Source: Gracilinanus agilis
Lineage: Eukaryota
Direction: 5' to 3'
NCBI RefSeq assembly: GCF_016433145.1
Contig: NC_058134.1
Location: forward strand, 46,929,976 to 46,993,975
DNA length: 64,000 bases
Numbering within the stretch: position 1 is the stretch's first letter; the number at the start of each line of letters is the position of its first letter. Of the stretch, positions 3,959-57,500 are shown in pieces. Position numbers and translations under genes: made by a program. Under the pieces are notes generated by a model that ran no database searches, was not told the origin of the DNA, and saw only the letters and a program-made list of their open reading frames with translations.

Positions 3959-4460
3959 CTTCCTTCTAAAATGATTTCATAAACATAAATCATGGAAACA
4001 TGGAAAATTTTTCTTAAAAAAATGTTTTTTTAATTAAAAAAAATAAAATGATTTCATCTTAATGCTCTTCACACATTGTTCCAGTCAGATTGGATTTTGC
4101 TCTTCCCAAATTCAGGATCCAATTTTTCATATCCATGCCTCAACATACCTGTATGCCTTCTATAAAATGCATTTCCTTCTCATCTTACTTAGCCTCTTCA
4201 GAATCTTTTGCTTCCTTAAAAGCCCAGCTCAGGTGTTACTTCCTATAGCAAACTTCTCCTTCCCCTCAGTTATGAGACCCATCTCTTTACCTAAATTACT
4301 CTGTATTTGCTATTTGCTTTATCCATATATGTATTATTTATCCACTCAAGAATTGTGACCTCTTTGAAGGCTGGTCCTCTTTTTGGTTTGATCTCCAGAT
4401 CTCTTGAATCAGGTAAAAGTCTCTTTACACGTAGTAAGTGTTTAATCATCCCCCGGTAAA

Positions 4461-4650
4461 GGGGCACTTAGGTGGCTCAGTGGATTGAGAGCCAGGCCTA
4501 GAGATGGGAGTTCTTAGGGTCAAATCTGACCTCAGAGATTCTTCCTAACCATGTGATCCTGGACAAGTCAGTTAACCTCCATTGCTTAGCCCTTACCTCT
4601 CTTCCACGGTATTGATTCTAAGACAGAAAGTAAATATTTAAAATAAATAA
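4461..4650 (+). mobile_element. SINE1_Mdo-type SINE
   Basis: GGGGCACTTAGGTGGCTCAGTGGATTGAGAGCCAGGCCTAGAG head. Confidence 0.85.
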
Positions 4651-4759
4651 TCAGAGTGAACTGAATTGAATTGAGTAATTTAGACTGACTGGTTTATAGA
4701 ATGTGGGTCTCTGAGGGCAGAGATTATTCCTGTTTTTCTTTGTATCCACAAGAGTGAAC

Positions 4760-6290
4760 ATGGTCAGTCAGCCAATTGGCATTTATTAAGGACCTGCTGG
4801 GTGCTAACCCTGGGGAAACAAAGGTAAAAGATAGTCCCAGTTCTTGAGAAGGCAATATGCTAACAATTCTGCATAAAATGGAGACAAAATAAATTGGAGT
4901 TCTTCTCAGAAGGAAGGCCCTGAAATTAAGGACTAGAAAAGGTTTCTCTCAAAAGGTGATTTTTGAAGTAGAGACTTGAAGGAAACCAGAAAAGCCAGGA
5001 GGTAGAGATGAAGATTAGAATATTTCCAGACCTATAAGACAGCCAGTGAAATGCTCCTTCTTGTATTTGAGGAAGAACATGGATGCCAATGGTACTGGAC
5101 TGCAGAATTTGTAGAAGGGAGGAAAGTATAAGAAGGCTGAAAAAGTAGGAAGTTTCCAGGTTCTGGAGGGCTTTGAAAACCAAACAGATCATATTTGGTC
5201 CTTGAGGTGAAAGGGAGCCACTGGATTTTGGTGAACAAAGGTATGATAAAAGTAAGGCAGGAAGAACAATTAGGCCAACAGTACAGAAATGAAGTGTTAA
5301 GGGCCTGTACCAAGATGGTGGTAGTTTCTTGGGTTTTTGTCAAGACAATGAGAGAAGGGGATGCAGAGAGCCCCTCAGGGAAATAAAGGTCTCCCTCAGG
5401 TACCATCAAGTCAATGCAGATGGCAGAGCCCTACCCAGATCCCTGCAGCCTGAAAATCAGGCCACAGGATGGATGGATGACCTAATCAGAGCCCTCTGTG
5501 TGACTCTCTTCTGACCAACACTTTTTATTACATGTGACACTGTAAAAACAACCTTCAACATATTTCAAAAGGTAGAGTTAAGTGTGAGAACTCTCAAATT
5601 CGGGGGACAAGTCTAACGTGGGAAAGTAGTGAAGCGTGAGAATATTTTGGTTTATTCATACTGGGTCCTTCAAACTCTTGGGACAGAGAGACAGAGAAAG
5701 ATTAAAGCAGCTTCTGCTATTTCACTGAGGGTATGAACTATTAACTCATTAAATGCTGATTTATTATAGAGTATTAAGGGGAATTCTATAAGGGGAGTTC
5801 TATAAATGGATTTCCATAAAGAAAATTTATATCTTTACTACAAAACTTGGGGCTATCCTAAAAATATATAGATTATAATAATTTTAATAATAAAAAGTGT
5901 TGGTCAGAAGAAAGTCACGCAGAGGGGTCTGATTGGGTCATCCATCCATCCTGTGGCCTGATTTTCAGGCTACAGGGATCTGGGTAGGGCTCTGCCATCT
6001 GCATTGACTTGATGGTACCTGATGGAGACCTTTATTTCTCTGAGGGGCTCTCAGCAAGGGGACATAAAGGAAATATGTTATGAAAGTATAAATGACAGGA
6101 TTTGGCTTCTGACTGCATATGGATGGTGAGTGTGAAGGAGGAGTCAAAGATGATACCTAGATTGTAAACCTGGATGACTAGGAAGATGATGGAACTCTCA
6201 AGACTAATAAGGAAGTTAGAAAAAGAAGAAGGTTTGGAGGAAAGGATGATGAATTAAGTTTTGGATATGTTGAGTTTAACAGATCTAAGA
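4760..6290 (-). mobile_element. L2 fragment hosting the 5362-6056 inverted-repeat element
   Basis: Purine-rich antisense L2 text (GGAGCCACTGGA..., GGAGGAGTCAAAGATGA..., GTTTTGGATATGTTGAGTTT) on both sides of the insertion. Confidence 0.7.
5362..6056. mobile_element. 695-bp unclassified non-autonomous element with 169-bp terminal inverted repeats, TG...CA ends and a 6-bp TSD
   Basis: Arms 5362-5530 and 5888-6056 align as reverse complements with 8 mismatches and no gaps. AGGGGA is duplicated at 5356-5361 and 6057-6062. L2 sequence continues on both sides. Confidence 0.9.
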
Positions 6291-6299
6291 CATCAAAAT

Positions 6300-7045
6300 T
6301 CCTGCTGATTTCACCTTTGTAACCTCTTTCTAACGTGTCTCCTTTTTCTCTTTTCTGACATTTCCACCATTCTAGAGAAGGTCTTTATTAACTCATGCCT
6401 TAATTATTTCAATAGTCCACTGGTGGATCTGTCTGCCTCAAGTCTCTCTCCACACTACAATCGGTCTTAAAGTGGCTTAATTTTTCAAAAGTTCACAGCT
6501 GATCCTGTCACCCCCTTAATCACTAAATTCTATTGGCTTTCTATTGTCTCCAAGATCAAATAGAAAATGTTCTCTTTGACATTCAAAGCTCTTCATAACC
6601 TAGACTCCTTTTAGCTTTCCTGTCCTCTTATATCTTACTCCCCCATATGTACTTTTCAATCCAATGACATAGATCTCCTGGATATTCCACACACAAGACA
6701 CTCTATCTCTTAGCAACAGGCATTCTCTCTGGCTATCCCCCAGGCCTGGAAAGCTCTCCTTTCTCTGCTCTGACTACTGACTTAATTGGCTTCCTTTAAG
6801 TCCAAACTAAAATCCTACCTTCTACAGGAAACCATCCCCAGCCTCTCTCATTCCAGTACCTCCCCTTGATTATTTTTCTTGTTTTCTGTAGCTCACTTTG
6901 TATATATTCATTTGTAGGTCTTCTCCTCAATTAGACTGTAAGTTCCTTGAGGGCAAGGACTATCTTTGGCCTCTTCTTATATCCCCAGCACTTAGCATAG
7001 TGCCTGGTACCTAGTAGGAGGTAAATAAATATTGATTGATTGATC
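6300..7045 (+). mobile_element. L2 3' fragment
   Basis: Ends in CTTAGCATAGTGCCTGGTACCTAGTAGG...ATAAATATTGATTGATTG. Confidence 0.75.
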
Positions 7046-7059
7046 AGATATCCAATAGA

Positions 7060-8390
7060 TAGAGATGTATGTGAGACTGGAGGATAGGAGAAAAATTAGG
7101 GACAGGTAGATCAAAGAATTATATGTATTGAGATGATAAATAAAAACATGATTACTGTTGAGATAACCAAGTAGAATAGTGTAGAGAAGAGGAGAGGGCC
7201 TAGACAAAGGTTTGGGGGGCACTGTGTTTAGGTATGACATTGTTAAATATCCCTTAAAGGCAAAAATAAAGAAGAGAGAGAAAAGGAATATTTGGATAGG
7301 TTGTGGGGGAATCAGGAGAGAGCAGTATCAAGAAAACTTAAAAGAGAAGAGAGTATAAAGGAGAAGAGGGCGATGGACAATACCAAAGACTGCAGAGAAG
7401 CCAATAAAGATGAGAACTAGGAAAGCGCCACTGGCAATTAAGAGATCATTAGTAACTGGAGAAAGTGTTTTCAGTTGAATGATGAGATTAGGAGCCAGGC
7501 TTCAGAGAATGAGGAAGAAGTAGAGGCCCTTATTTTAGATGGCTTTCTCAAGGAATTGAACCACAAAAAAAAAACCATGAGAGAGATAGAGTAAAATTAC
7601 TGCCAAGGAAAAGAATGAATGAATCAAGTGAGGATTTTTAGAGGATGGGATAGATATGGAAAAGAGGGAGCTCTCTGTAAATGCCTTCGATTATTTTTAG
7701 TGAATCATGTGGCAAGGTTCTGAGCTGAGACAGAGTGGGAAAAGAGGAGGTATCCGTATTTTGAAGGGCAAGAAGATTTAGAAAAGCCACTATAGTGAGA
7801 CAGTGAATTAATTAGGGAGCTCTATGAGGATTGCCTTGCTGCAGAGAGAGCCCAGTTGAATTATGTTACATAATATAATCATGAATCCATTTGTGTGGTT
7901 TTGTGACTTCCTCTTGCTTTGTTCTGGATAAGATGAATAGTAGGCTAGGTAGGCAATGAATGATCCAAGGATGGAGTTGGGAAGGGCAAAATATTCCATA
8001 GGATAATGGGGCAAGGGACTTGACAAAAGAGGAGACCATAGAATTGAACTGGCTCCCTGGTGGATCAAGATGGAGAAGTGAGAAGATGGCAGCCAGTGCA
8101 AAAGTGGTGATGTGGGAAAGAACTTGGGGCTCGAGGGATTAGAGGTCACAGTGAAGATGAAGAATAGAGTTTGGAATTGCAAGGCAGAAGGAGAGGTGGG
8201 ATGAGAACAGACTATGAGCGGATAAAGGAATTTCAAAGTTTGTGAACATGGAGGCGTAGCATTTGCGGGTGATAGCAAGATCGAGGGTATGGCTATCTCC
8301 ATGCAGCTACGGTAGTGTGGAAAAGGATGTCATGGGAAATTAGTAAACTGAGGAATTGGGAGGTTTAGATGTCTGAGGGAATATCACTTA
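7060..8390 (-). mobile_element. L2 fragment
   Basis: Purine-rich antisense L2 ORF2-derived sequence. Confidence 0.65.
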
Positions 8391-21750: not shown

Positions 21751-22403
21751 CGCTGGCCCCTGCAGCCCTTCCTTCCAATGCTCTGCCCTTCCCCCAACTC
21801 AGTCGCCACAGCCTGACTGTAACGACTCCCAAACCCTTTGCTCGAAGGCACCAAGCAGTCCGCTTCCGTGGGAAGGAAAAGGGGGGCCAAGAGAACGCGG
21901 AGGGGATTCTGGCTCCACAGGTAGCCAAAGGGAGGGGCCGAGGCAGCCCCTGGGCAGGTGAGTTACCCCGAGTTAGGACATGGGGCCGCCAGGCTAGGAT
22001 CTGGCGCCCCCTCTCCAGCTCGAGGCCCCTGGCCAGCTTCGGGGCTGCCCAAGGTCACGCAGCTTTGGAACTCGGACCCCATCTCCAAGAGGGCCAAGGC
22101 GGGGTTAAGGATAGAAAGGGAAGCTCGAGGGGCCTGGGGTGGGGGGGTAGGGATACGGTTGGTAAAGAAGCATTAGGCGAGGGGGAAGCATACGGGCTAG
22201 GCGCGAGGGGAAGGGGTTTGGGGACGGTGACAGGCCGGTGTGGGCGGAGATAATGGGATAACTGACAGGGTAGGGGGCTCGGGAGTTCAGAGCGGGGGTC
22301 CGGACAGGGGTCCGCTCGCCGTCGGCCATTTTCTGGGCACAGACAGACAAAGCCAGGGGCGCCGCTAGGGTAACGGACGGCGGGGATCGGGAAAAATACT
22401 CAC

Positions 22404-22434
22404 CGAAAGATTGGAGGTTCTGGATAGTGGACAT
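22404..22434 (-). CDS. EIF1B: Eukaryotic translation initiation factor 1B, coding exon 1 (MSTIQNLQSF + 1 nt)
   Basis: ATG at 22434-22432; 31 coding nt, then a GTGAGT donor (22403-22398). The N-terminus MSTIQNLQSF matches EIF1B rather than EIF1 (MSAIQNLHSF). Confidence 0.97.
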
Positions 22435-22680
22435 GCGATATTAGTGAGAGGCCGGTGAGGGGATAAAATGCCTGCGGGGCGCGCCCGGGAGGACCTTGTG
22501 TCAGGAGGCTGTGGGGCGAGGAAGGTGAGATAAATAAAGGAGAGCTGGCGGCCGGGAGCGGAGCGGAGGCGGGCGGAGGGCGGCGACGGAGGCGGCGGGG
22601 CAGCGGCAGCGGGAGGCGGCAGAGGCAAGGAGCGGAGGAGACGCGAAAGAGGAGGCGGCGCTGCGGCTTCTCCCACAAAA
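22435..22680 (-). other. EIF1B: EIF1B 5' UTR (exon 1); TSS approximate
   Basis: GC-rich leader with no upstream AUG between 22680 and the start codon. TSS inferred about 25-30 nt below a TAAATA box at 22700-22695. Confidence 0.7.
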
Positions 22681-22832
22681 TGGCCGAACGCGACTATTTA
22701 GGCACGCTCTCCGCCCATCCCACGTGAGCGCCTCCGCGCTACGCCTCTTGGGACTTGTAGTCTTCTTGAGGCGTTATGAGCAGCGAGGTGCGCTCGCTGA
22801 CGCGGGCTGGAGGACCACAAATCCCGGCAGGC
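22677..22832. promoter_or_regulatory. EIF1B core/proximal promoter motifs
   Basis: YY1-like AAAATGGCCG 22677-22686; TAAATA (minus) 22695-22700; GC box CCGCCC 22711-22716; E-box CACGTG 22721-22726. Two ACTACAnnTCCC-type (ZNF143/THAP11) motifs at 22750-22762 (minus) and 22813-22825 (plus). Motif matches only. Confidence 0.6.
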
Positions 22833-23245
22833 ACTGCGCCCCTCCTCTCTCTGCTTCCCTCCCCCTTCCCGGTTCCCCTTCCCCCTCCCCCTCTCAGGCT
22901 CCTCAGGGATGCTTGGAAAGTTGCTCCTATCGCCTTACTGGAAAAATCCTTTCAGGGCAGAGTGAGCCCACCCTGACAGGGTCATAGTTTTAGAGCTTCC
23001 GTGGACCTCAGAAATAATTTTACAGAAAAGGAAACTGAGGCAGCAGGAAAGGAAATTACTTGTCCAATGTCATGCAGATAGTGGAAAAGCTGGTGTTCAA
23101 ACTCCCTATCTGTTCCATTTTCACATTAATTCAGTAATTCAATTCAACAAGCATTAAACACCATTTTGTGCTAAGAATGCCTTGATAAATTGCTTTATGA
23201 AATCCTCAGAAACCCCTGAATCACACTAGATAGGATTAATAGGCT

Positions 23246-45700: not shown

Positions 45701-47819
45701 GATTCCCAAAGAGGCATGATTTGGGGAAAGTCTGGGAAAGGGGAAAGACCAAAAGGATTTTTCTGGTTTTATAACTTCCTGGTTCTGCTTTGATAAGGTT
45801 AAAGGTTTTGGAATTAAAATTTACTTTTTTTTATGGGTTTATTTGCTATTTCTGTTGATGGGTGTTAAAATCATAACAAGAAGAATACAGCAAAGTGAAG
45901 ATGAGAGAGTAGGTATTTGAAAAGAAAATTTCCCAAGATATGTTTATTTTTATCTTAATCATGAACAGCTCAATATGCAGTACCCTCAAGTAGCAAGTAT
46001 TTTGGGAAACATTGATTCATTTTTGAAAAGTATTGCTAGATTACATGGCACATATTTATACTTTTAAATTCATATCTTTACTCTAATCTTAATTAAAATG
46101 AATATATTTTTTGAGAAGTCAAATGAAGGCATATTTTATTTGGGAAAGAGCCATTTCCTGCTACAGAAAAAGAACATTTGTCAGTTTTTGTTTGCATCAT
46201 GGAACAAAACACAAAATCACACATTTTCCTTGCTACCACTGGGCATATCACATTTATATAGCAATATTTTGGATGAATCAAAAGATTATGTTTTTGTTTT
46301 TGTTGTTTAGGAAAAGTAAGAAGTTTTGATGCAGTTTTGGTTATATTTGGCCCCTACCTTGAGAAGAAGGGGGAAGGAAGTATTAACTGAAACATCAGAG
46401 TAACCAGTGAAACCACAGGATCTAACCACTAAGAAATTAAACCAAGTTTGTTGGGAGCCATTAAGATTCCTCTTTTGACTCCTTTTATGATTCACACCTT
46501 TTCTTATTGAAAAACATTATAGCCTCCAGGAAAACTTTAAGTTCTTAGTAAACCAGCACTTTATGAGTTAACATCCTTTTTTCACTCAGCAGAGTAAAGC
46601 TGCTCTCTAACTGCTCCAGGCATCCCAAGGTCATGGAGTGGCAAGCTCAGACAAAATAACTTTTAGATAAAGTGAGGCCCATTTTTAACCTTGAGACTTT
46701 TTCTCATCCAGCATTATCTTCTTAGGAAAATTATTTGTAAAACTATAACTTTATTGTGCTTTGATATGACATAATTTGTGTTTCTGCACAAATGCAAAGT
46801 TTCAGGGGAGTTCTTTTGTGTGAAATGAGTCTTGAAGTATATATAATAAACTCCATGCTGCAAGAGACAGAGCTGGAAGCATGAGCTAGAAGATCTTCTG
46901 TGTCCGTTACTTATCAACTAAGCCTTTATCAGATTACCTGGAGATGATAGATAGATCTCAAGACAAATTCATTTCATATTTTTATCTGGCTTGTGTTGGC
47001 AGGATCATAGGCACATGGGATTTTCCTATCCTGGACTGGTATAGTTTTAACATAGTTTATTTATTCTGAAGTCCAGCAAGTGAAAGGAGCCACTCACTAC
47101 ATATATTCAGTATTAGAAGAGCTGGACAGCTCCTGATGAGATTTCATACAGAGCTGGGATAGTTCAAAGAATTTTTTCATATTTAACTTAGAGGACCTGG
47201 GTACAAGACCTGGTCTGTTACTTAGAATCTCTTATCTTAGACAAGTCACTTAAATTTCCTCTACCATCATGTTCTCATCTATAAAATGAAGGCATTGGAC
47301 TAGATGACCCTTCTAAGTCTATGATCCTATAAGCCTATAATCAGGACAAAAGGATCTCCCAGCCTGATGAGTAGAATTAATAATCAAGCAATGGAGAAAT
47401 CAGCTCACATTTATTAAGCACATACTATGTGCCAGATGCTATGCTAAGTTCTGGGCATACAAAGACAAAAGTGAAACAGTCCCTTCCCATGGAAAATTTG
47501 CATTTAATCAGACATTATATATCTTATCATGCTATCATATCTATTCTATGAAACTGTAAGCTCCTTGAAAGCAGAGACACATTTTTATTTTATTTGTATG
47601 TCCAGAGCTTAGCCCACTGCCTGGTACATAATATCATAAATGCTTATCGTATAAGGGATATATGTATATAAACATATTTAAAGCATATACATGGGGAAGA
47701 TAGATTGGAGAGCATTGGACACTAGAAGCTGAGGAGAATCTGGAAAATTTTTATGTAGAAGGTGGTCCTTCAATATCCTTTGTTTTGCTCTCAATACATT
47801 TAAATTCTCTGTGAAAGTG

Positions 47820-50050
47820 AGCTGTGACTCTCAGTCAATCAATAGGCATGTTTTAAGTCCTACTATGTGCCAGGCTTTGTGCTAGACATTGTTAGTCAAT
47901 ATGCTAGATGTTGCTAGCTTACATTCCAAGTTGGAGGAAGAAAACAAGTACATGTATAAGTGTATGCAGAATAAATTAAAAATGAATAAATAAAAATAAA
48001 TAAAGAATACCTAAAAGACAAAGTGGTAGGAGAGGAAGAACACTGGTATGTAGAAGTATTACATTAATCTAGAAGAGGTGATAAAGGCCTGATTAAGATG
48101 TAGCTTTGTGCATAGAGAGGAGTCAGATGCAAGAAAGGTTGTGGAGACAATAACAGTAAGATTTATCAACTAATTGGATATGTGAGTAAGGGAGAGTATA
48201 GAGTTGAGGATAATTTGGAACTCAAGTGGCTAAAAGTATGTTAGTTTCTTCAATAGAAATAATGAAGTTTGGAAAAGAGGAAGGTTTGAGTTCTGTTTTA
48301 GATATGTTGAGCTTGAGATGCCTTTGAGAAATATGGTTTGAAAAGTTCAGTAGGCAATAGTTCCATACAAGCATTAACACTTCCTTCCTTCCTTCTCCTT
48401 AGAGATTTCAGAGAAGACCTCTCTTAGAATGAGATCAGATTTTCTGTCCTGGTTTTGGTTGATATCTTACTCTTATATAGGTCTGTGTATCATTTATATA
48501 AATATGATCCTTAAATATGATCCTTAGAGATTTCAGAGAAGATCTCTCTTAGAATGAGATCAGATTTTCTGTCCTGGTTTTAGTTGATATTTTACCTTAC
48601 TCTCATATAGGTCTGTGTATCATTTATATAAATATGATCCTTAAATTTTGGAGGAAAGATAAAGTTATCAGTGTAGAAGGAGATGAGACAAGGAAGGAAC
48701 CTAGGTAGGAGCCTCAGTGAACATGGAACTAGTGGATATGATATAGAATATGTGCCAAGGAAGCAGGCAAGGAAATATTCAGATGGGAAAACAAGGAGAC
48801 AGTAGGGTCATAAAAATCAACAATATCAAATGCAGAAAATTGATAAAGATGTGGGCCAAGAAAAGACCATCTAATTTGGCAATGGAAAGATGATTAGTTA
48901 ATTGGAGAGATTTTCAGCTGAGTGATTGAGCCAGAAGCTGGATTGCAAAGGGTTGAGAAATTAATAATAGGAAAATTTGAGACAGTGGTTGTAGATACCA
49001 TTTGAGAGTTTTCTCAGCATTTAGATGAGAAAAAGAGGAGAGATATAGAATGATAGTTTGAGGAGATGATAGTGTCTAAAGGAGGTGGTTTTTGTTTATT
49101 TTCTTTTTACATACAGGGAAGTATGGAGCATACATGTATGTGGAAGACAGTGGGGAAGAAACTGGTAGATAGGGAGAGGTTGAAAATTCAAAAGGGCTAT
49201 CATTGAGGTTTCATTTTTCTAGAAAAAATAGGAAAGAATGGAATCAAATACATGTATAGAGAGTTTAGCCTGCAAAGGAGAAGGAATAGAGAAAAAGCAA
49301 CAGAGAGAAAGGAAGAAACATGAGAGGCAGAGAAAGAGATGATGTCAGGTGGGTTTGAAATAAGAGAAGGGAACTAGAGAAAGTTACTTTAGGCTGGCTT
49401 AAATTATCTCAGTAAACTAAGAGATAAACTCTTCAGCTGAGAAAGATTCAGGGAGTAGAAGGTGTAGGAGTCTTGAGGAGAGAAGTGGAGGTTTGAAATA
49501 GCTTCTGTGGGAAGTGAGATAAAGAATTAATTAGGGAGAAATAAAAGGACTACCTTGCTGTAGTGAGGGCTGAGGTGTAATTAGATAACATGAATTTATG
49601 AAGACAACGAAGTGTGAGACTTACTCCAGCTTTGTTTAGGAACCCATGAGTAAGAACAGGGGAGTCAGATCATGGGTAATCTATGGTTGAGTTTTGTCAA
49701 GAGAAAAACAGTGATAGGAGTAGGTGAAGGTTTCCAGAACAGAGGATAGTATAAGGTTGAAATGCATAATTATTGGGTTGAGATTAGAAAGGGAGGAGTC
49801 AGAATAGGAATAAGGACCTAAGAAAGTTCTAAGAGGTAGAGAAATTGAAAATCTTAATGTGAACAAAAAAATAGTTTTAGGCATAGAGAAAGGTAGAATC
49901 ATAAAAGCCTATGTAAAATGGGAAGGTCAGAATTTCTAATTAAGAAAGTGGAAAACTTGTGGGTAATAGTGAAATTCAGTGTTTAACTTGAGGAGTTATA
50001 TAGGGAATAGGTTATAGGCTTTAAAGAGACTAAGGAACTAGGAGACTAGG
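47820..50050 (-). mobile_element. Long degraded L2, interrupted by the tandem duplication at 48396-48645
   Basis: L2 3' tail at about 47830-47890, followed by a purine-rich antisense L2 body. Confidence 0.65.
48396..48645. repeat. Direct tandem duplication, period about 125 bp
   Basis: TCCTTAGAGATTTCAGAGAAGA...TATAAATATGATCCTTAAAT occurs twice, starting at 48396 and 48521, with a few differences. Confidence 0.92.
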
Positions 50051-51799: not shown

Positions 51800-54700
51800 G
51801 TTTTTTTTTTAATTTATTTTTACCCAGTTACATGTAAAAACAATTTTTAGCATTTTTAAAAAATTTGAGTTCCAAATTCTTTCCTTCCCCTCCTTCTTCC
51901 TTGGTATGGTAAGCAATCTGAGTGGTAAGCAATCTCAATGTAGATTTTACATGTACAATCACATAGAACATTTTTCCATATTAGTTATTAACTGGAAAAG
52001 ATCTTGAACAAAAGCGAAAAAGAAAGAGAAATATAGTATGTTTTGGTCTGCATTCAGACCTCATCAGTTTTTTCTCTGGAGGCAGATGGCATTTTTCATC
52101 ATAAGTCTTTAAGACTGTCTTGGATATTACTGGGAATAGCTAGGTCATTTACAATTGTTCATCAAAAAATATTGCTTTTACTGGGTACAATGTTCTTCTG
52201 GTTCTGTTCACTTTACTTTGCACCAGTTTACATAAATCCCAGGTTTTTCTGAAATAATTGTTTGTCATTTCTTATAGCACAATAGCATTCCATTAAAATA
52301 AATTCTATTAAAAATTAAAGACCTCAATTTGTTCAGCCATTCCCCAGGTGATGGGCATCCTCTCAATTTCCAGTTCTTTACTACCACAAAAAGAGTTGCT
52401 ATAATTATTTGTTTGGACAAATAGATTCTTTTCCTTTTTCCCTGATCACCTTAGGAAATAAACCTAATAGTGGTATTGCTGGGTCAAAAGATATACACAG
52501 TTTTATTACTCTTTGAGCATAATTCTATGCTCTCAAAAATAATTGGATCAGTTCGCAATTCCATTAACAGTGTATTAATGTCCCCATTTTCCCATCCCCC
52601 TCCAACTTTGTCATTTTGCCCTTTATTTATTTTAGCCAATTTGATAGTTGAGAGATGATATCTCAAAATAATTTTGATTTACATTTCTATAATCAGTAGT
52701 GATTTAAAGCATTTTTTCATATGCCTATATATGACTTTGATTTCTTCATCCAAAAACTATCTGTTCATATCTTTTGACCATTTATCATTTGTGGAATGAC
52801 TCCTGTTTTTATAAATTTCACAGAGTACTCTATACATGTTGGATATGAGACCTCTATTTATGAAACTGTCTTTAAATATCCCCCAATTTTGTGTTTTCCT
52901 TTGGTTTGACTATATTAGTATTATTTTTACAAAATCTTTTAATTTAATGTATTCAAAATTACTAATTTTATATTTCACAATGCTTTCTGTCTTGTTTATT
53001 CATAATTTTTCTCCTATCTATAAATCTGGTAGTTAAGTTCTTGCCTATTTAAAAAATGTGTTTATGATATCTCTCTTTATGCCTAAGTCATGTATCTATT
53101 TTGATCTTATCTTGGTATATAGATGTTGTTCTATATCTAGTTTCTGCCAGATTGCTTTCTAGTTTTCCCATCAATTTTTGCTAAATAGTGAATTCTTATC
53201 CCGAAAGCTTGGATCTTTGTTTTTGTCAAGTACAAGGTTACTATAAACTTTTACAACTGTTTGTGAATCAAGATGGCAGAAGAGATCTCTAAAATTACCC
53301 TCCAAGAAACTATAATCTGATGCCTCAAAACAAAATTTAGAGCAGCATAACTCGCAAAAAATATGGACTGGAATAATTTTTCAGTCCCACACAGCTTAGA
53401 AGGCCTACATGAAAGATCTATTGCATCAGGGTGGAAATGGAGCTCAAAGCAGCATGCCAAGGCAGGCCTCATCACAGCACCAAGTGTTGGGTTCATCTGA
53501 ATCAGCAGCAAAGACTTCCTGATGTCTCAGCCACAGATGGTAAGGTGGGAGGTTGCAGGGGGGATTGGATAACAGCTCATAAGGAGATTTCAGGGGTCTC
53601 TGTGCTGGCTCTGAGTGAAAGACTCTTGTCATACTGCCTACATGCAAATCCAAGTCTCAGTCCTGGGTTGAGATCTTGGAGTGAAGAGCATTAGCTCACA
53701 CCTACACTCACAGCCATGGGAGAGCAGGTGACTCTGGTCACAGGTCTAAGGCAGAAAGGGTTGCTTGTGGTTGCTCACAGACTGGAGCACAGGTTGGGAG
53801 AGTACACTCTCCTTAGATCATACTACCTTGGAAAAACTGAAAACTTATACATTCTTTTATCCTCTACATAACAATTCCCAGAGCTAGTTCTGAAAGAAGT
53901 TGAATAAAGAACCTGAAGTTTGGAATAGTGTTCCCTTCATCATAGAAACAAAGTCAAACTTTAATAGTTTTTTTAAGTAAAAAAGGCTTGAAAATGAACA
54001 ACAACAACAAGAAAGAAACTCAACATAGAAAGTTATTTTGGTGACATGGGAAAAATCAAACTCAGAAGAAGACAAAAAAAAGTCCATACTGCTGCATCCA
54101 AAGCCTTCAAGAAAATTAGGAATTGCTGTCAAGCCCCAAAAGAATTAATGGAGGAACTCAAAAAGAATTTTAAAAATCAAATTAAGACAAGTAAAAGAAA
54201 AATTGGGAAAAGAAATGAGAGTGATATAGGAAAATCATAAAAAAGAGAGCTTGATAAAGGAGGCAGAAAATTCCTCTGAAGAAAACTCCTTAAAAAAGCA
54301 GAATTGGCCGAATGTAAAAAAAAGATACACAAAAATGCATTGGAGAGAACTTTTTAAAAGGCAGAATTGTCCATATGGGGAAAGAGGTACAAAAATTCAA
54401 TAAGGAAAAGAACTCTTTACAAAATAGAATTGGCCAAATGGAAAAGAAGATACAAAAAGCTCATTGGAGAAAATAATGCTTTAAATATTATAACTAGGCA
54501 AGAAGAAGCTAATTACTTAATGAGATATAAAGAAATAATCAAACAAAGTCAAAAGAATGAAAAAAATGGGAGAAGATGTGAAATATCTCATTGTAAAAAC
54601 AAATGACCTGGAAAATAAATACAGGAGAGATAATCTAAAAATTATTAAATTACCTGAAGGTCATGATAAAAGAAAAGCTTAGATATCTTCTTTTAAGCAT

Positions 54701-57500
54701 TTATCAAGGAAAACTGTCCCGATATTCTAGAATTTAGAGGACAAAATAGAAATTGAAAGAATCTATCAATCACCTCCTAAAAGAGATCCCAAAAGGATAA
54801 CTTCCAGAAATATTGTAGCCAAGTTCCAGAACTCCTAATTCAAGGAGAAAACAATTTAGATATTGTGGAGCCACTGTCAGGATAACATAAGATTTAGTAA
54901 CTTCTACATTAAAGAATCAGGAGGTCTGAAATATGATATTCCAAAGGGCAAAGGAGCTAGAACTTTAACCAAGAATCTTTTACTCACCAAAACTGAGCAT
55001 AATCCTTCGGGGGGTGGGGGTTGGGAATGGTATACAATGAAATAGAAGACTTTCAAATATTCCTAATGAAAATACAAGAGCTGAATGGAAAATCTGACTC
55101 TCAAATACAAGACACAAGAGAAGCATAAGAAAGTAAAAAGGAAAGAGAAATTAAAAGACATTCAATAAGATTAATTGTTTATAACCCTAAATGGGAAGAT
55201 GATTCATGTAAAGCCTCAGAACTTTATCGTTATTGGAACAGTTAGAACAGAGTTGAATAGGTGTGAATTGAATATGATGGGATGATCTCTAAAAAAATTA
55301 AGAGGTAAGATAGGGAATGAATTGAGAGAAATAGGAAGGGAGAACCAGAACACAATAAATTATCTTACATAAAAGAGTTATGAAAGAGCTTTAACAGTGG
55401 AGGGGAAGATGGAGTAGGTTGGGACAGGAGCAAGTAAACCTTACTTTCATCAGAATTGGCTCAAAAAGGGAAGATCATATACAATCAATTGGGTATAGAA
55501 ATCTATCTTATCCTACAGGAAAGTAGGAAGGGAATAGGATAAGGCAGTGGGGGTGGCAGATAGGAAAGAGGATGAATGGGAGTTTGTGGTCAGAAGCTAA
55601 ATACTTTTGAGGATGGGCAGAATGAAAAAGAGAGAAAAGGACAAGTGAGGTGGGGAAATAAGATGTAGTATAAAACACAGTGATCATAATGGTGAAAAAA
55701 TTTTACAATAATAATAAAAGCCTAGTTTCTCAAATATATAGAGAAATGAGTCAAATGTAAGAAAATATAAGTATTCTTCAATTGATTAATGGTCAAAGGA
55801 CATGAACAGGCAGTTCTGAGACAAAGTAATCAATGCTCTTTATAGCAAAAAATACTCTAAGTCACTATTAATTAGAGAAATGCAAATTAAAACAACATTA
55901 CATCCCTCATCTATCAGAATGGTTGTTATGAAAGAAAGGGAAAATGAAGAAATAAGGAGGGGATATGGGAAAATTAAAACACAAATGCACTGTTGTAGGA
56001 GTTGTGAAATCATTCTGGAGAGCAATTTGGACTATGCCCAAAGGGTTATAAAACAACATATACCCTTCTACCCAGCAATACTATTACTAGCTTGGTATTC
56101 CAAAGATATAGAAAACAGAAAGAGGAAGGACCTATATATTAAAAAATATATTTAAAGCAGCTCTTTTCCTGGGGGCAAAGAATTGGAAAGTGAAGATATA
56201 ACCATCAATTGGGAAGTGGCTGAGTAAGTTGTAGTATATGGTTGTACTGGAATAGTATTGTGCAATGAGGAATGATAATCAGAAAGTGTTCAGAAAAAGC
56301 TGGAAAGACACAAACTGAAGCAGAGTGAAGTAAGCAGAACTAGAACATTGTACACAGCAATACTGCACAGTGAACAACTGTGAATAACTTAGCTATTTTC
56401 AGTAAATCAGAGATCTAAAACAATCCCAAAGGACTTAGGATAAAAAAAATACCATCTGCTTCCAGAAAAAGAACTGATGGAGTCTGAATACAGAGCAAAA
56501 CAAACTTTTTTCACTTTCTTAAAAATTTTTGTTCACCTTTCATTTCGCAAAAGGATTAATATGGAAAAATATCTTGCATGATTGCACATGTAAAATAGAT
56601 TGCTTGTCATCTCAGTGCAATATGGGAAAGGGGGAGACATGAGAGAGGGAGAGAATTTCGTACTCAAAATTCTTTTTAAAAATTTGGAAACAATTTTTAT
56701 ATGTAATTGAGGAAAAATAAAATAAAAAATTAAACAACTATTTGTTGCATGTCTGTTCTGTTCTTTTGATCTACTTTTCTAATTCTTAGCCAGTACCAGA
56801 TAGTTTTGATAATTACTGATTATTCAGAATGCTACTTAAAATCTGTTGCTGCTTGATCTCTTTCTTTTATATTTTTCCATTACTTCCTTTTATATTCTTG
56901 ACCTTTTGTTCTTCCAAATGAATTTTATTATTTTTTTCTAGTTCATTACATATTTTTTTGTATCTTAATTGGAATGGCATTGAACAAGTAGATTATTTTA
57001 TGGGTAGGCATTTTCCATTTTAATTATACTGGATCTGCCCACCCATGAACAATTAATACTTCTTCCATTGTTAAAGCTGACATTATTTGCGTAAAAAGTG
57101 TTTTATAATTATGTTCATACAGTTCTTGGATTTGTTTTGCAGGTATATGTCTAGGTATTTTATTCTATCTTTGGTTATTTTAAATGGTATTATCTCACTA
57201 TACTATATCTTCAGGTCTTTGTTGGTGATATTTAGAAATGCTGATGATTTATGTGAGTTTATTTTGTATCTTGTTCTTTGCTAAAATTTTTGATAGTTTC
57301 AACTAAGTCTTAGTTGAATTCTCTAGGATTTATTATATACCATCGTATGGTCTTCAAGAAGAGATAGTTTTATTACCTTTTTGTTCATTCGGAATCCTTT
57401 AATTTCTTTTTCTTCTCTTATTGCTATTGTTAGCATTTCTAATATGTTTAATAATTTCTAATGAAATAATATTGATGATAATCATCATTTCACTTCTGTG
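51800..57500 (-). mobile_element. Older antisense L1 (3' UTR and ORF2 part) split by the 53265-56733 insertion
   Basis: T-rich tail at about 51800. Antisense ORF2 sequence is contiguous across the nested element (…TTAGCCAGTACCAGATAGTTTTG…). Confidence 0.75.
53265..56733 (+). mobile_element. HAL1-like / internally deleted L1 (5' UTR, decayed ORF1, spacer, ORF2 C-terminus, 3' UTR)
   Basis: Starts GAATCAAGATGGC; ORF1-like remnant (DLENKYRRDNLKII.LPE) at about 54600-54670. Near 55695 the sequence jumps from the ORF2 start to the ORF2 C-terminal region. A-rich tail; TSD ACAACT(G/A)TTTGT at 53253-53264 and 56734-56745. Confidence 0.8.

Follow-up and report, generated by a model that had tools for sequence, protein, structure and literature searches.

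A 695-nt insertion in non-coding DNA, with TG...CA ends, long inverted arms and a 6-bp duplication of its host site, lies near the left end of the 64-kb window (the whole stretch of DNA analysed here). The element would work like a retroviral integrant and is best read as a rearranged LTR, but it departs from a standard solo LTR, and its membership of a family is unproven. Our favoured account, a tentative one that may well prove wrong, is a one-off event in which the unprocessed U5 end of a retroviral DNA was joined to an inverted U3 fragment and the product was integrated through two U3 ends. The outline itself, with long terminal inverted repeats (TIRs), a 6-bp target-site duplication (TSD) and TG...CA termini, is within known kinds. 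The features of the element and its host site are collected in Table 1.

Table 1. The insertion, its putative LTR-like interior and its host site. Positions are those of the window; a dot marks features without an assigned strand.
Feature	Position	Strand	Basis or remark
Old interspersed repeat, split by the element	4912..6307	.	Flanks collinear with other copies in the window
Left TSD, AGGGGA	5356..5361	+	Identical flanks and host collinearity
Left arm, 169 nt, TG start	5362..5530	+	Inverted complement of the right arm
Linker, 2 nt, between att-like end and left arm	5531..5532	-	No microhomology with the other arm's continuation
LTR-like unit, 524 nt, TG...CA, putative U3-R-U5, right arm included	5533..6056	-	Motifs
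att-like 3' end, 4/4 of gamma NNYNACA and 5/6 of general YNYAACA	5533..5539	-	Motifs of PMC3601003 (excerpts)
AATAAA, 118 nt from the unit end, with a C+T-rich stretch (0.67) after it	5651..5656	-	Motif
TATAA, candidate TATA box	5764..5768	-	Second TATAAAT at 5831-5825; such motifs are common in AT-rich DNA
14-nt tandem repeat	5775..5830	.	2.2 copies at 94% (5775-5805) plus two degenerate units
Right arm, 169 nt, CA end	5888..6056	+	Minus-strand CCAAT at 5936-5932, lost in the left arm by one substitution
Right TSD, AGGGGA	6057..6062	+	Identical flanks and host collinearity

The two arms are complementary at 161 of 169 positions with no indels, around a spacer of 357 nt (GC content 0.33, against 0.50 in the arms), and their complementarity has sharp limits on both the outer and the inner sides. 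The eight mismatches are scattered and comprise five transitions and three transversions, a single one of the eight being a CpG-type transition. The terminal pentamers of the element are TGCAG and TGCTG. When flank lengths of k = 2 to 12 were compared (11 lengths), the flanks were identical at k = 6 only, and the 169-bp inverted arms, TG...CA ends and 6-bp TSD described in the sequence-only reading are thus all confirmed. Pairs of identical 6-mers at a spacing of 701 nt are found at 31 of 61,598 positions in the window, and just one of the 31 pairs has TG...CA inside it, namely the element itself. The window contains 37 inverted self-matches of at least 60 nt, seven of them within 5 kb; the arms of the element are 95% identical, compared with 68-82% for the other six inverted pairs within 5 kb.

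The arms hold zero (left) and one (right) CpG where about ten would be expected, despite a GC content of 50%. Because the arms are CpG-poor and only one of the eight mismatches is of the CpG type, the source sequence would have been CpG-poor already when the arm was duplicated. The motif AGAGCCC occurs three times in the left arm (5366-5373, 5424-5431 and 5487-5494, spaced 58 and 63 nt apart) and twice in the right arm; these recurrences are candidate U3 enhancer repeats or transposase binding sites.

The element interrupts an older repeat, as had been claimed earlier. The flanks 5328-5361 and 6063-6307 are collinear with a second copy of the repeat at 2818-2519, while 4912-5246 matches 6864-6508. 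When the flanks are joined with one AGGGGA, the alignment to the copy running from 2818 to 2519 is ungapped across the junction (65% identity over 302 nt, E 4e-23), and its score is maximal at k = 6 among the values k = 0 to 14 tried (99.0, with a modest margin over the runner-up at 95.5). Since the flanks are collinear without a gap and fit best at k = 6, the insertion removed no host DNA, and AGGGGA is a genuine duplication. The alignment establishes the repeat nature and collinearity of the host DNA; the repeat is presumably an L2. The TG...CA ends, the strict 6-bp TSD and the collinear host flanks support insertion by an integrase-type DDE enzyme, and on this point the sequence-only reading stands.

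The divergence between the arms is 4.9% (K2P). Assuming a rate of 2.2e-9 per site per year, arms that were identical at first and no gene conversion since, this corresponds to about 11 Myr (5-21 Myr). A reference SINE-like copy has ten hits to other such copies in the window, at identities of 77-87%. With arms that are 95% identical, the element looks younger than these copies, unless conversion has homogenised the arms. One of the many tRNA-type SINE copies in the window lies at 4461-4643, about 720 nt to the left of the element; we take it to resemble opossum SINE1, and on this likeness the host is presumably opossum-like.

Chimeric fold-back reads are a known type of artefact, and the window has four N gaps elsewhere. 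The nearest gap is no closer than 12085, and the arms carry eight scattered differences, including the CpG-type transition. A fold-back read would also be expected to yield near-identical arms and no duplication, while the element has an exact TSD and collinear flanks. An assembly or library artefact is very unlikely, and we give it almost no weight.

The inner junctions of the two arms are unequal. The right arm continues into AT-rich DNA, while the left arm is followed by 2 nt and then by the att-like motif. Read on the minus strand, the unit from 6056 to 5533 presents in order CCAAT (5936), two TATA-like boxes (5831 and 5768), AATAAA (5656) and the att-like end; a TATA box, AATAAA, a C/T- or G/T-rich tract and an att end are conserved LTR landmarks (excerpts of PMC2664473 and PMC3601003). 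The 14-nt tandem repeat may be an enhancer-like repeat of the putative U3. An NF-kB-like reading of this repeat relied on a loose pattern and was left out of the evidence.

The significance of these motifs was estimated against shuffled sequences and windows of host DNA. An att-like end exactly 2 nt from the arm occurs in 65 of 5000 shuffles and 140 of 8544 host windows; if offsets of 0-4 nt are allowed the count rises to 342 of 5000 shuffles, giving a chance of 0.013-0.07 for the end motif. The poly(A)/TATA pattern considered apart from the end motif appears in 115 of 5000 shuffles. The end motif, AATAAA, C/T-rich tail and upstream TATA occur together on one strand at offsets 0-4 in 4 of 5000 shuffles and 9 of 8544 overlapping host windows, and the same-strand end and poly(A)/TATA set at offset 2 in 0 of 5000 and 2 of 8544; as the thresholds were fixed after inspection of the sequence, we estimate that these counts probably overstate the significance by a factor of 10-30. 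The motif set thus gives moderate support only for the region from 6056 to 5533 as an LTR.

The same motifs bear on the orientation of the arms, which had been likened to R-U5 segments in the sequence-only reading. The minus-strand series of CCAAT, TATA and AATAAA, the C/T-rich tail and the gamma-type end (4/4) favour U3 instead, though not decisively. Read on the plus strand, AATAAA (5889) is followed by a C+T content of 0.48, against 0.67 on the minus strand. The start of the left arm matches the gamma 5' motif at 6/8 positions, the general att consensus is matched at 5/6 at both ends in either orientation, and the HML 3' motif is matched at 5/6 in the plus reading and 3/6 in the minus reading. 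On the balance of these motifs the arms would more likely be U3-type than U5-type ends.

Comparison with a solo LTR from a retrovirus with a 6-bp TSD (an MMTV-, ALV- or HTLV-1-like integrase; class II ERV) shows what is ordinary in the element and what is not. Both have TG...CA ends and a 6-bp duplication, and the 524-nt sub-unit carries candidate TATA-like, AATAAA and C/T-rich landmarks. A TSD of 4-6 bp is the rule for ERV LTRs, with 6 bp for alpha, beta and delta types (excerpts of PMC12789967), and that of the element falls within this range. The element differs in its extra 169-nt inverted copy of one end, which gives both outer ends the same att site. The terminal inverted repeats of LTRs are about 7 bp long (excerpts of PMC3601003) compared with 169 bp here, which sets the whole element apart from standard solo LTRs. 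The assignment to a class is also mixed: the 3' motif fits gamma (4/4) better than HML (3/6), while gammaretroviruses duplicate 4 bp (excerpts of PMC12789967), so that the gamma-type motif and the 6-bp TSD disagree.

From the observed insertion, its ends and its motifs we infer a series of four steps, each of which is conditional. The sequence from 6056 to 5533 on the minus strand would be a whole LTR (U3-R-U5). Before integration, the unprocessed U5 end of the viral DNA (CA plus 2 nt) would have been joined tail to tail with a 169-nt piece from the start of U3, through a template jump by reverse transcriptase (RT), through strong-stop DNA folding back on itself (fold-back), or through end-joining with another viral DNA that had been broken; the left arm would then be an inverted extra copy of U3 positions 1-169, and the 2-nt linker may represent the two extra nucleotides of an unprocessed retroviral DNA end. 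In the third step a linear DNA with a U3 att site at each end would have been inserted by an integrase with a 6-bp stagger. Finally, the internal region would have been lost later through ordinary LTR-LTR recombination, or would never have been present.

Several of these steps have counterparts in the literature. According to excerpts of PMC12789967, viral ends before processing carry extra nucleotides past the CA (2 nt in ALV, MMTV, MLV, HTLV-1 and HIV-1 U5), integrase trims these from linear retroviral DNA, and ALV, MMTV and HTLV-1 make 6-nt duplications. Concerted integration of U3-only substrates by RSV integrase in vitro is reported in excerpts of PMC7955051, and self-priming and 2-nt template jumps of HIV-1 strong-stop DNA are described in part of PMC4668388. 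For the genomic setting, excerpts of PMC4350176 describe a recent LTR burst in the opossum, and few DNA transposons and no Maverick in mammals.

At the inner junction, the linker showed no microhomology with the continuation of the other arm, and hairpin formation was not significant (folding z = +1.1 and +0.55); an RT jump, fold-back and end-joining are consequently not distinguishable. An inner junction made by the integrase itself, through autointegration, was rejected, as the 2 extra nucleotides remain and are unmatched to the arm's continuation. Two independent head-to-head LTRs were likewise rejected, given a single TSD and no host deletion.

An extension carried on the 3' LTR would fall outside the viral RNA, and progeny would be ordinary proviruses. 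Because such a structure would not be transmissible by retrotransposition, the element is expected to be a singleton, with its parent LTR family abundant in ordinary direct form. No description of a U3-U3 germline integrant was found in our literature searches, which covered few subscription papers. Against a one-off event, a random window would be more likely to catch a member of a multi-copy family.

This base-rate argument would be accommodated if the element were an ordinary solo LTR from an ERV lineage with heritable long inverted ends, in which U5, upstream of the PBS, had been lengthened by an inverted copy of U3 and a family had formed. The TSD, TG...CA ends and LTR motifs would then be explained together, and 695 nt is within the usual range of LTRs; in excerpts of PMC3601003, the training sets of LTR models have mean lengths of 390-521 nt for retroviral LTRs and 695 for rGmr1. 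Nevertheless we regard such a lineage as improbable. The TIRs of about 7 bp given for known LTRs in those excerpts, and the inverted repeats of 2-5 bp of chicken ERVs (PMC5260121, PMC2329609), are far from 169 bp, and our literature searches found no precedent. An additional step would be required before the 5' LTR carried the extension, and reverse transcription might be impeded by a long stem formed from the LTR ends.

A change within the host chromosome receives still less credence from us, in which a later replication template switch or conversion would have added the inverted 169 nt to a plain solo LTR. The return switch would have a 2-nt CA microhomology, LTR ends being short inverted repeats, and the nearest rearrangement reported is that of a guppy ERV whose 5' LTR is inverted, possibly as a result of recombination (excerpts of PMC5210030). 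However, both breakpoints would have to hit the LTR termini exactly and leave the TSD intact, and the first switch would have occurred without microhomology and added 2 nt. The idea, raised in the sequence-only reading, that an ERV integrase mobilises a non-autonomous family appears mechanistically hard, because reverse transcription cannot make new copies of a piece that lacks a PBS or PPT. Efficient excision by integrase is not known, according to excerpts of PMC2836005.

The inverted arms also invite comparison with DNA transposons. hAT elements have 8-bp TSDs, and this assignment was rejected because the flanks at k = 8 differ at both boundary choices. Ginger1 and Ginger2/Tdd have TG...CA ends, TIRs of 40-270 bp and non-autonomous copies (excerpts of PMC2836005), and Polinton/Maverick elements share a 6-bp TSD and long TIRs with the element (excerpts of PMC10045372 and PMC6839031). 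The termini of Ginger1 and Ginger2 are TGTNR, compared with TGCAG and TGCTG here, and the flanks at k = 4 and k = 5 are not identical; excerpts of PMC2836005 and PMC10045372 give TSDs of 4 bp for Ginger1 and Ginger2 and 5 bp for Tdd, in conflict with excerpts of PMC6839031, where the Ginger2 TSD is 6 bp. Polinton/Maverick elements have AG termini, unlike the element (excerpts of PMC6839031), they are absent from mammals, and the element has no coding remnant. The earlier exclusion of these three groups is upheld, on the TSD for hAT, the termini and TSD for Ginger1/2, and the termini for Polinton.

The broader claim that no TIR element fits overlooked the IS3EU/GingerRoot group, whose members have 6-bp TSDs like the element, together with long TIRs and, in a minority, TG...CA ends. 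The element could be a MITE of this type or of an unclassified family with a 6-bp TSD, with the arms as true TIRs for an integrase-like DDE transposase and the AT-rich spacer as filler. We think this somewhat unlikely, though deserving of serious weight. GingerRoot elements have a 6-bp TSD, TIRs of 100-150 bp and TG...CA ends in 5 of 77 intact copies (excerpts of PMC6839031), and IS3EU and GingerRoot form one lineage whose TSDs are usually 6 bp (excerpts of PMC10045372). The sharp limits of the arms, their GC-rich composition around an AT-rich core and the recurrence of AGAGCCC (three in the left arm, two in the right) are all in keeping with a MITE, and a random window is more likely to contain a member of a multi-copy family than a one-off.

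Against a MITE, the ends are TA..TA in 72 of 77 GingerRoot elements (excerpts of PMC6839031) and in all complete IS3EU elements (excerpts of PMC10045372), so that TG...CA would be the minority form. The arms, at 169 bp, are just over the GingerRoot range, and intact GingerRoot copies are 3.9-12.9 kb long (excerpts of PMC6839031) while the element, at 695 nt, is without a transposase. The hosts named in those excerpts are fish, invertebrates, mosses and lycophytes, with no mention there of a mammal, a marsupial or vertebrates as a group; a literature search on IS3EU and mammals, judged by titles, gave no marsupial case, and a MITE would be unexpected in a mammal (excerpts of PMC4350176). A MITE would also not account for the set of LTR-like motifs or for the att-like end inside the element, and there is no second arm or spacer in the 64 kb, which is a weak test.

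Searches for relatives were negative within their scope. The best match to the arm within the window scored 23.8 bits, a value reached by 164 of 200 shuffles, and no second copy was found. The best match to the spacer (33.7 bits, reached by 1 of 200 shuffles) covers 28 AT-rich nucleotides, too short to read, and again the window has no second copy. A likeness to an L1-like 3' end at 51833-51871 (39 nt, 31.0 bits) was discarded, being reached by 22 of 200 shuffles. There was no match among 72,556 plasmids; among 50,697 phage records, two produced a single AT-rich match of 52 nt (E 5e-3), which we take as chance. The GTDB genomes contained no exact match to a 25-nt motif of the arm, and Rfam gave 0 matches at E<=1 over 4000-8000. 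Neither the element itself nor an LTR with long inverted ends was found in the literature searches, with few subscription papers covered, and the architecture is not described in PMC3582472, PMC4455052, PMC5260121 or PMC2329609.

Other repeats in the window include old copies of about 1 kb at 51805-52837 and 55734-56729, which are inverted, 68% identical and 2.9 kb apart and which we take to be L1-like 3' ends. A recent tandem duplication of about 125 nt lies at 48396-48646; its units are 93% identical, and a sub-repeat of 13 nt sits where they join.

Pfam was searched with 201 of the 211 window frames of at least 62 aa and three shorter frames from the element. The 8 (of 25) listed frames that overlap the element gave 0 hits, the frames inside it being short, and across the window SUI1 alone scored above its cut-off. 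A weak TNF match at 46717-46917 on the minus strand (E 1.9e-4; 21.8 bits against a cut-off of 23) lies in a 67-aa frame in AT-rich DNA and is probably chance, or a decayed exon. The SUI1 domain (E 4.5e-11) belongs to a four-exon gene on the minus strand, presumably EIF1B-like, with coding sequence from 22434 to 19712 and a CpG island at 22001-23000. This is the nearest gene found, and its end is about 13.7 kb from the element. No exons were detected near the element in the 201 of 211 longer frames scanned, a search that would miss short exons and non-coding transcripts.

As RNA, the region 5356-6062 has a predicted fold of high stability (z = -23; 0 of 20 shuffles equally stable), and the stem of the plus-strand RNA would contain 161 Watson-Crick pairs, three G-U pairs and five mismatches, with a longest perfect run of 50. 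A transcript from the putative promoter in the spacer would hold one arm only, and a double-stranded stem would therefore need transcription entering from outside; a read-through transcript would meet AATAAA 21 nt into either arm. The earlier proposal that the arms form a long dsRNA stem is possible but not supported here: it would need such read-through, and no nearby exon was found in the frames scanned. Most likely the element is inert, and no host function is indicated.

If the element is a singleton, it would be a germline fossil of an integrase inserting viral DNA with two identical ends, and would illustrate one way in which an LTR, normally a direct repeat, can turn into a TIR-like structure while its TSD stays intact, which is of specialist interest. 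The chain of events from LTR to TIR in the origin of Ginger1 has been called unclear, and inverted LTRs have been suggested (excerpts of PMC2836005). There is a slim chance that the element is instead one copy of an uncatalogued and fairly young marsupial family, either an ERV LTR with 169-bp inverted ends that spreads as a retroviral LTR or a TIR element, or the first mammalian family of the IS3EU/GingerRoot type. Were it already in Repbase or Dfam, the element would be ordinary. A family would otherwise represent an architecture that has no mammalian example in the literature searched. Either type would have seeded ready-made long hairpins across the genome, and an ERV LTR family with inverted ends would capture in progress the change from LTR to TIR that has been proposed for Ginger1, with the LTR-to-TIR question becoming testable.
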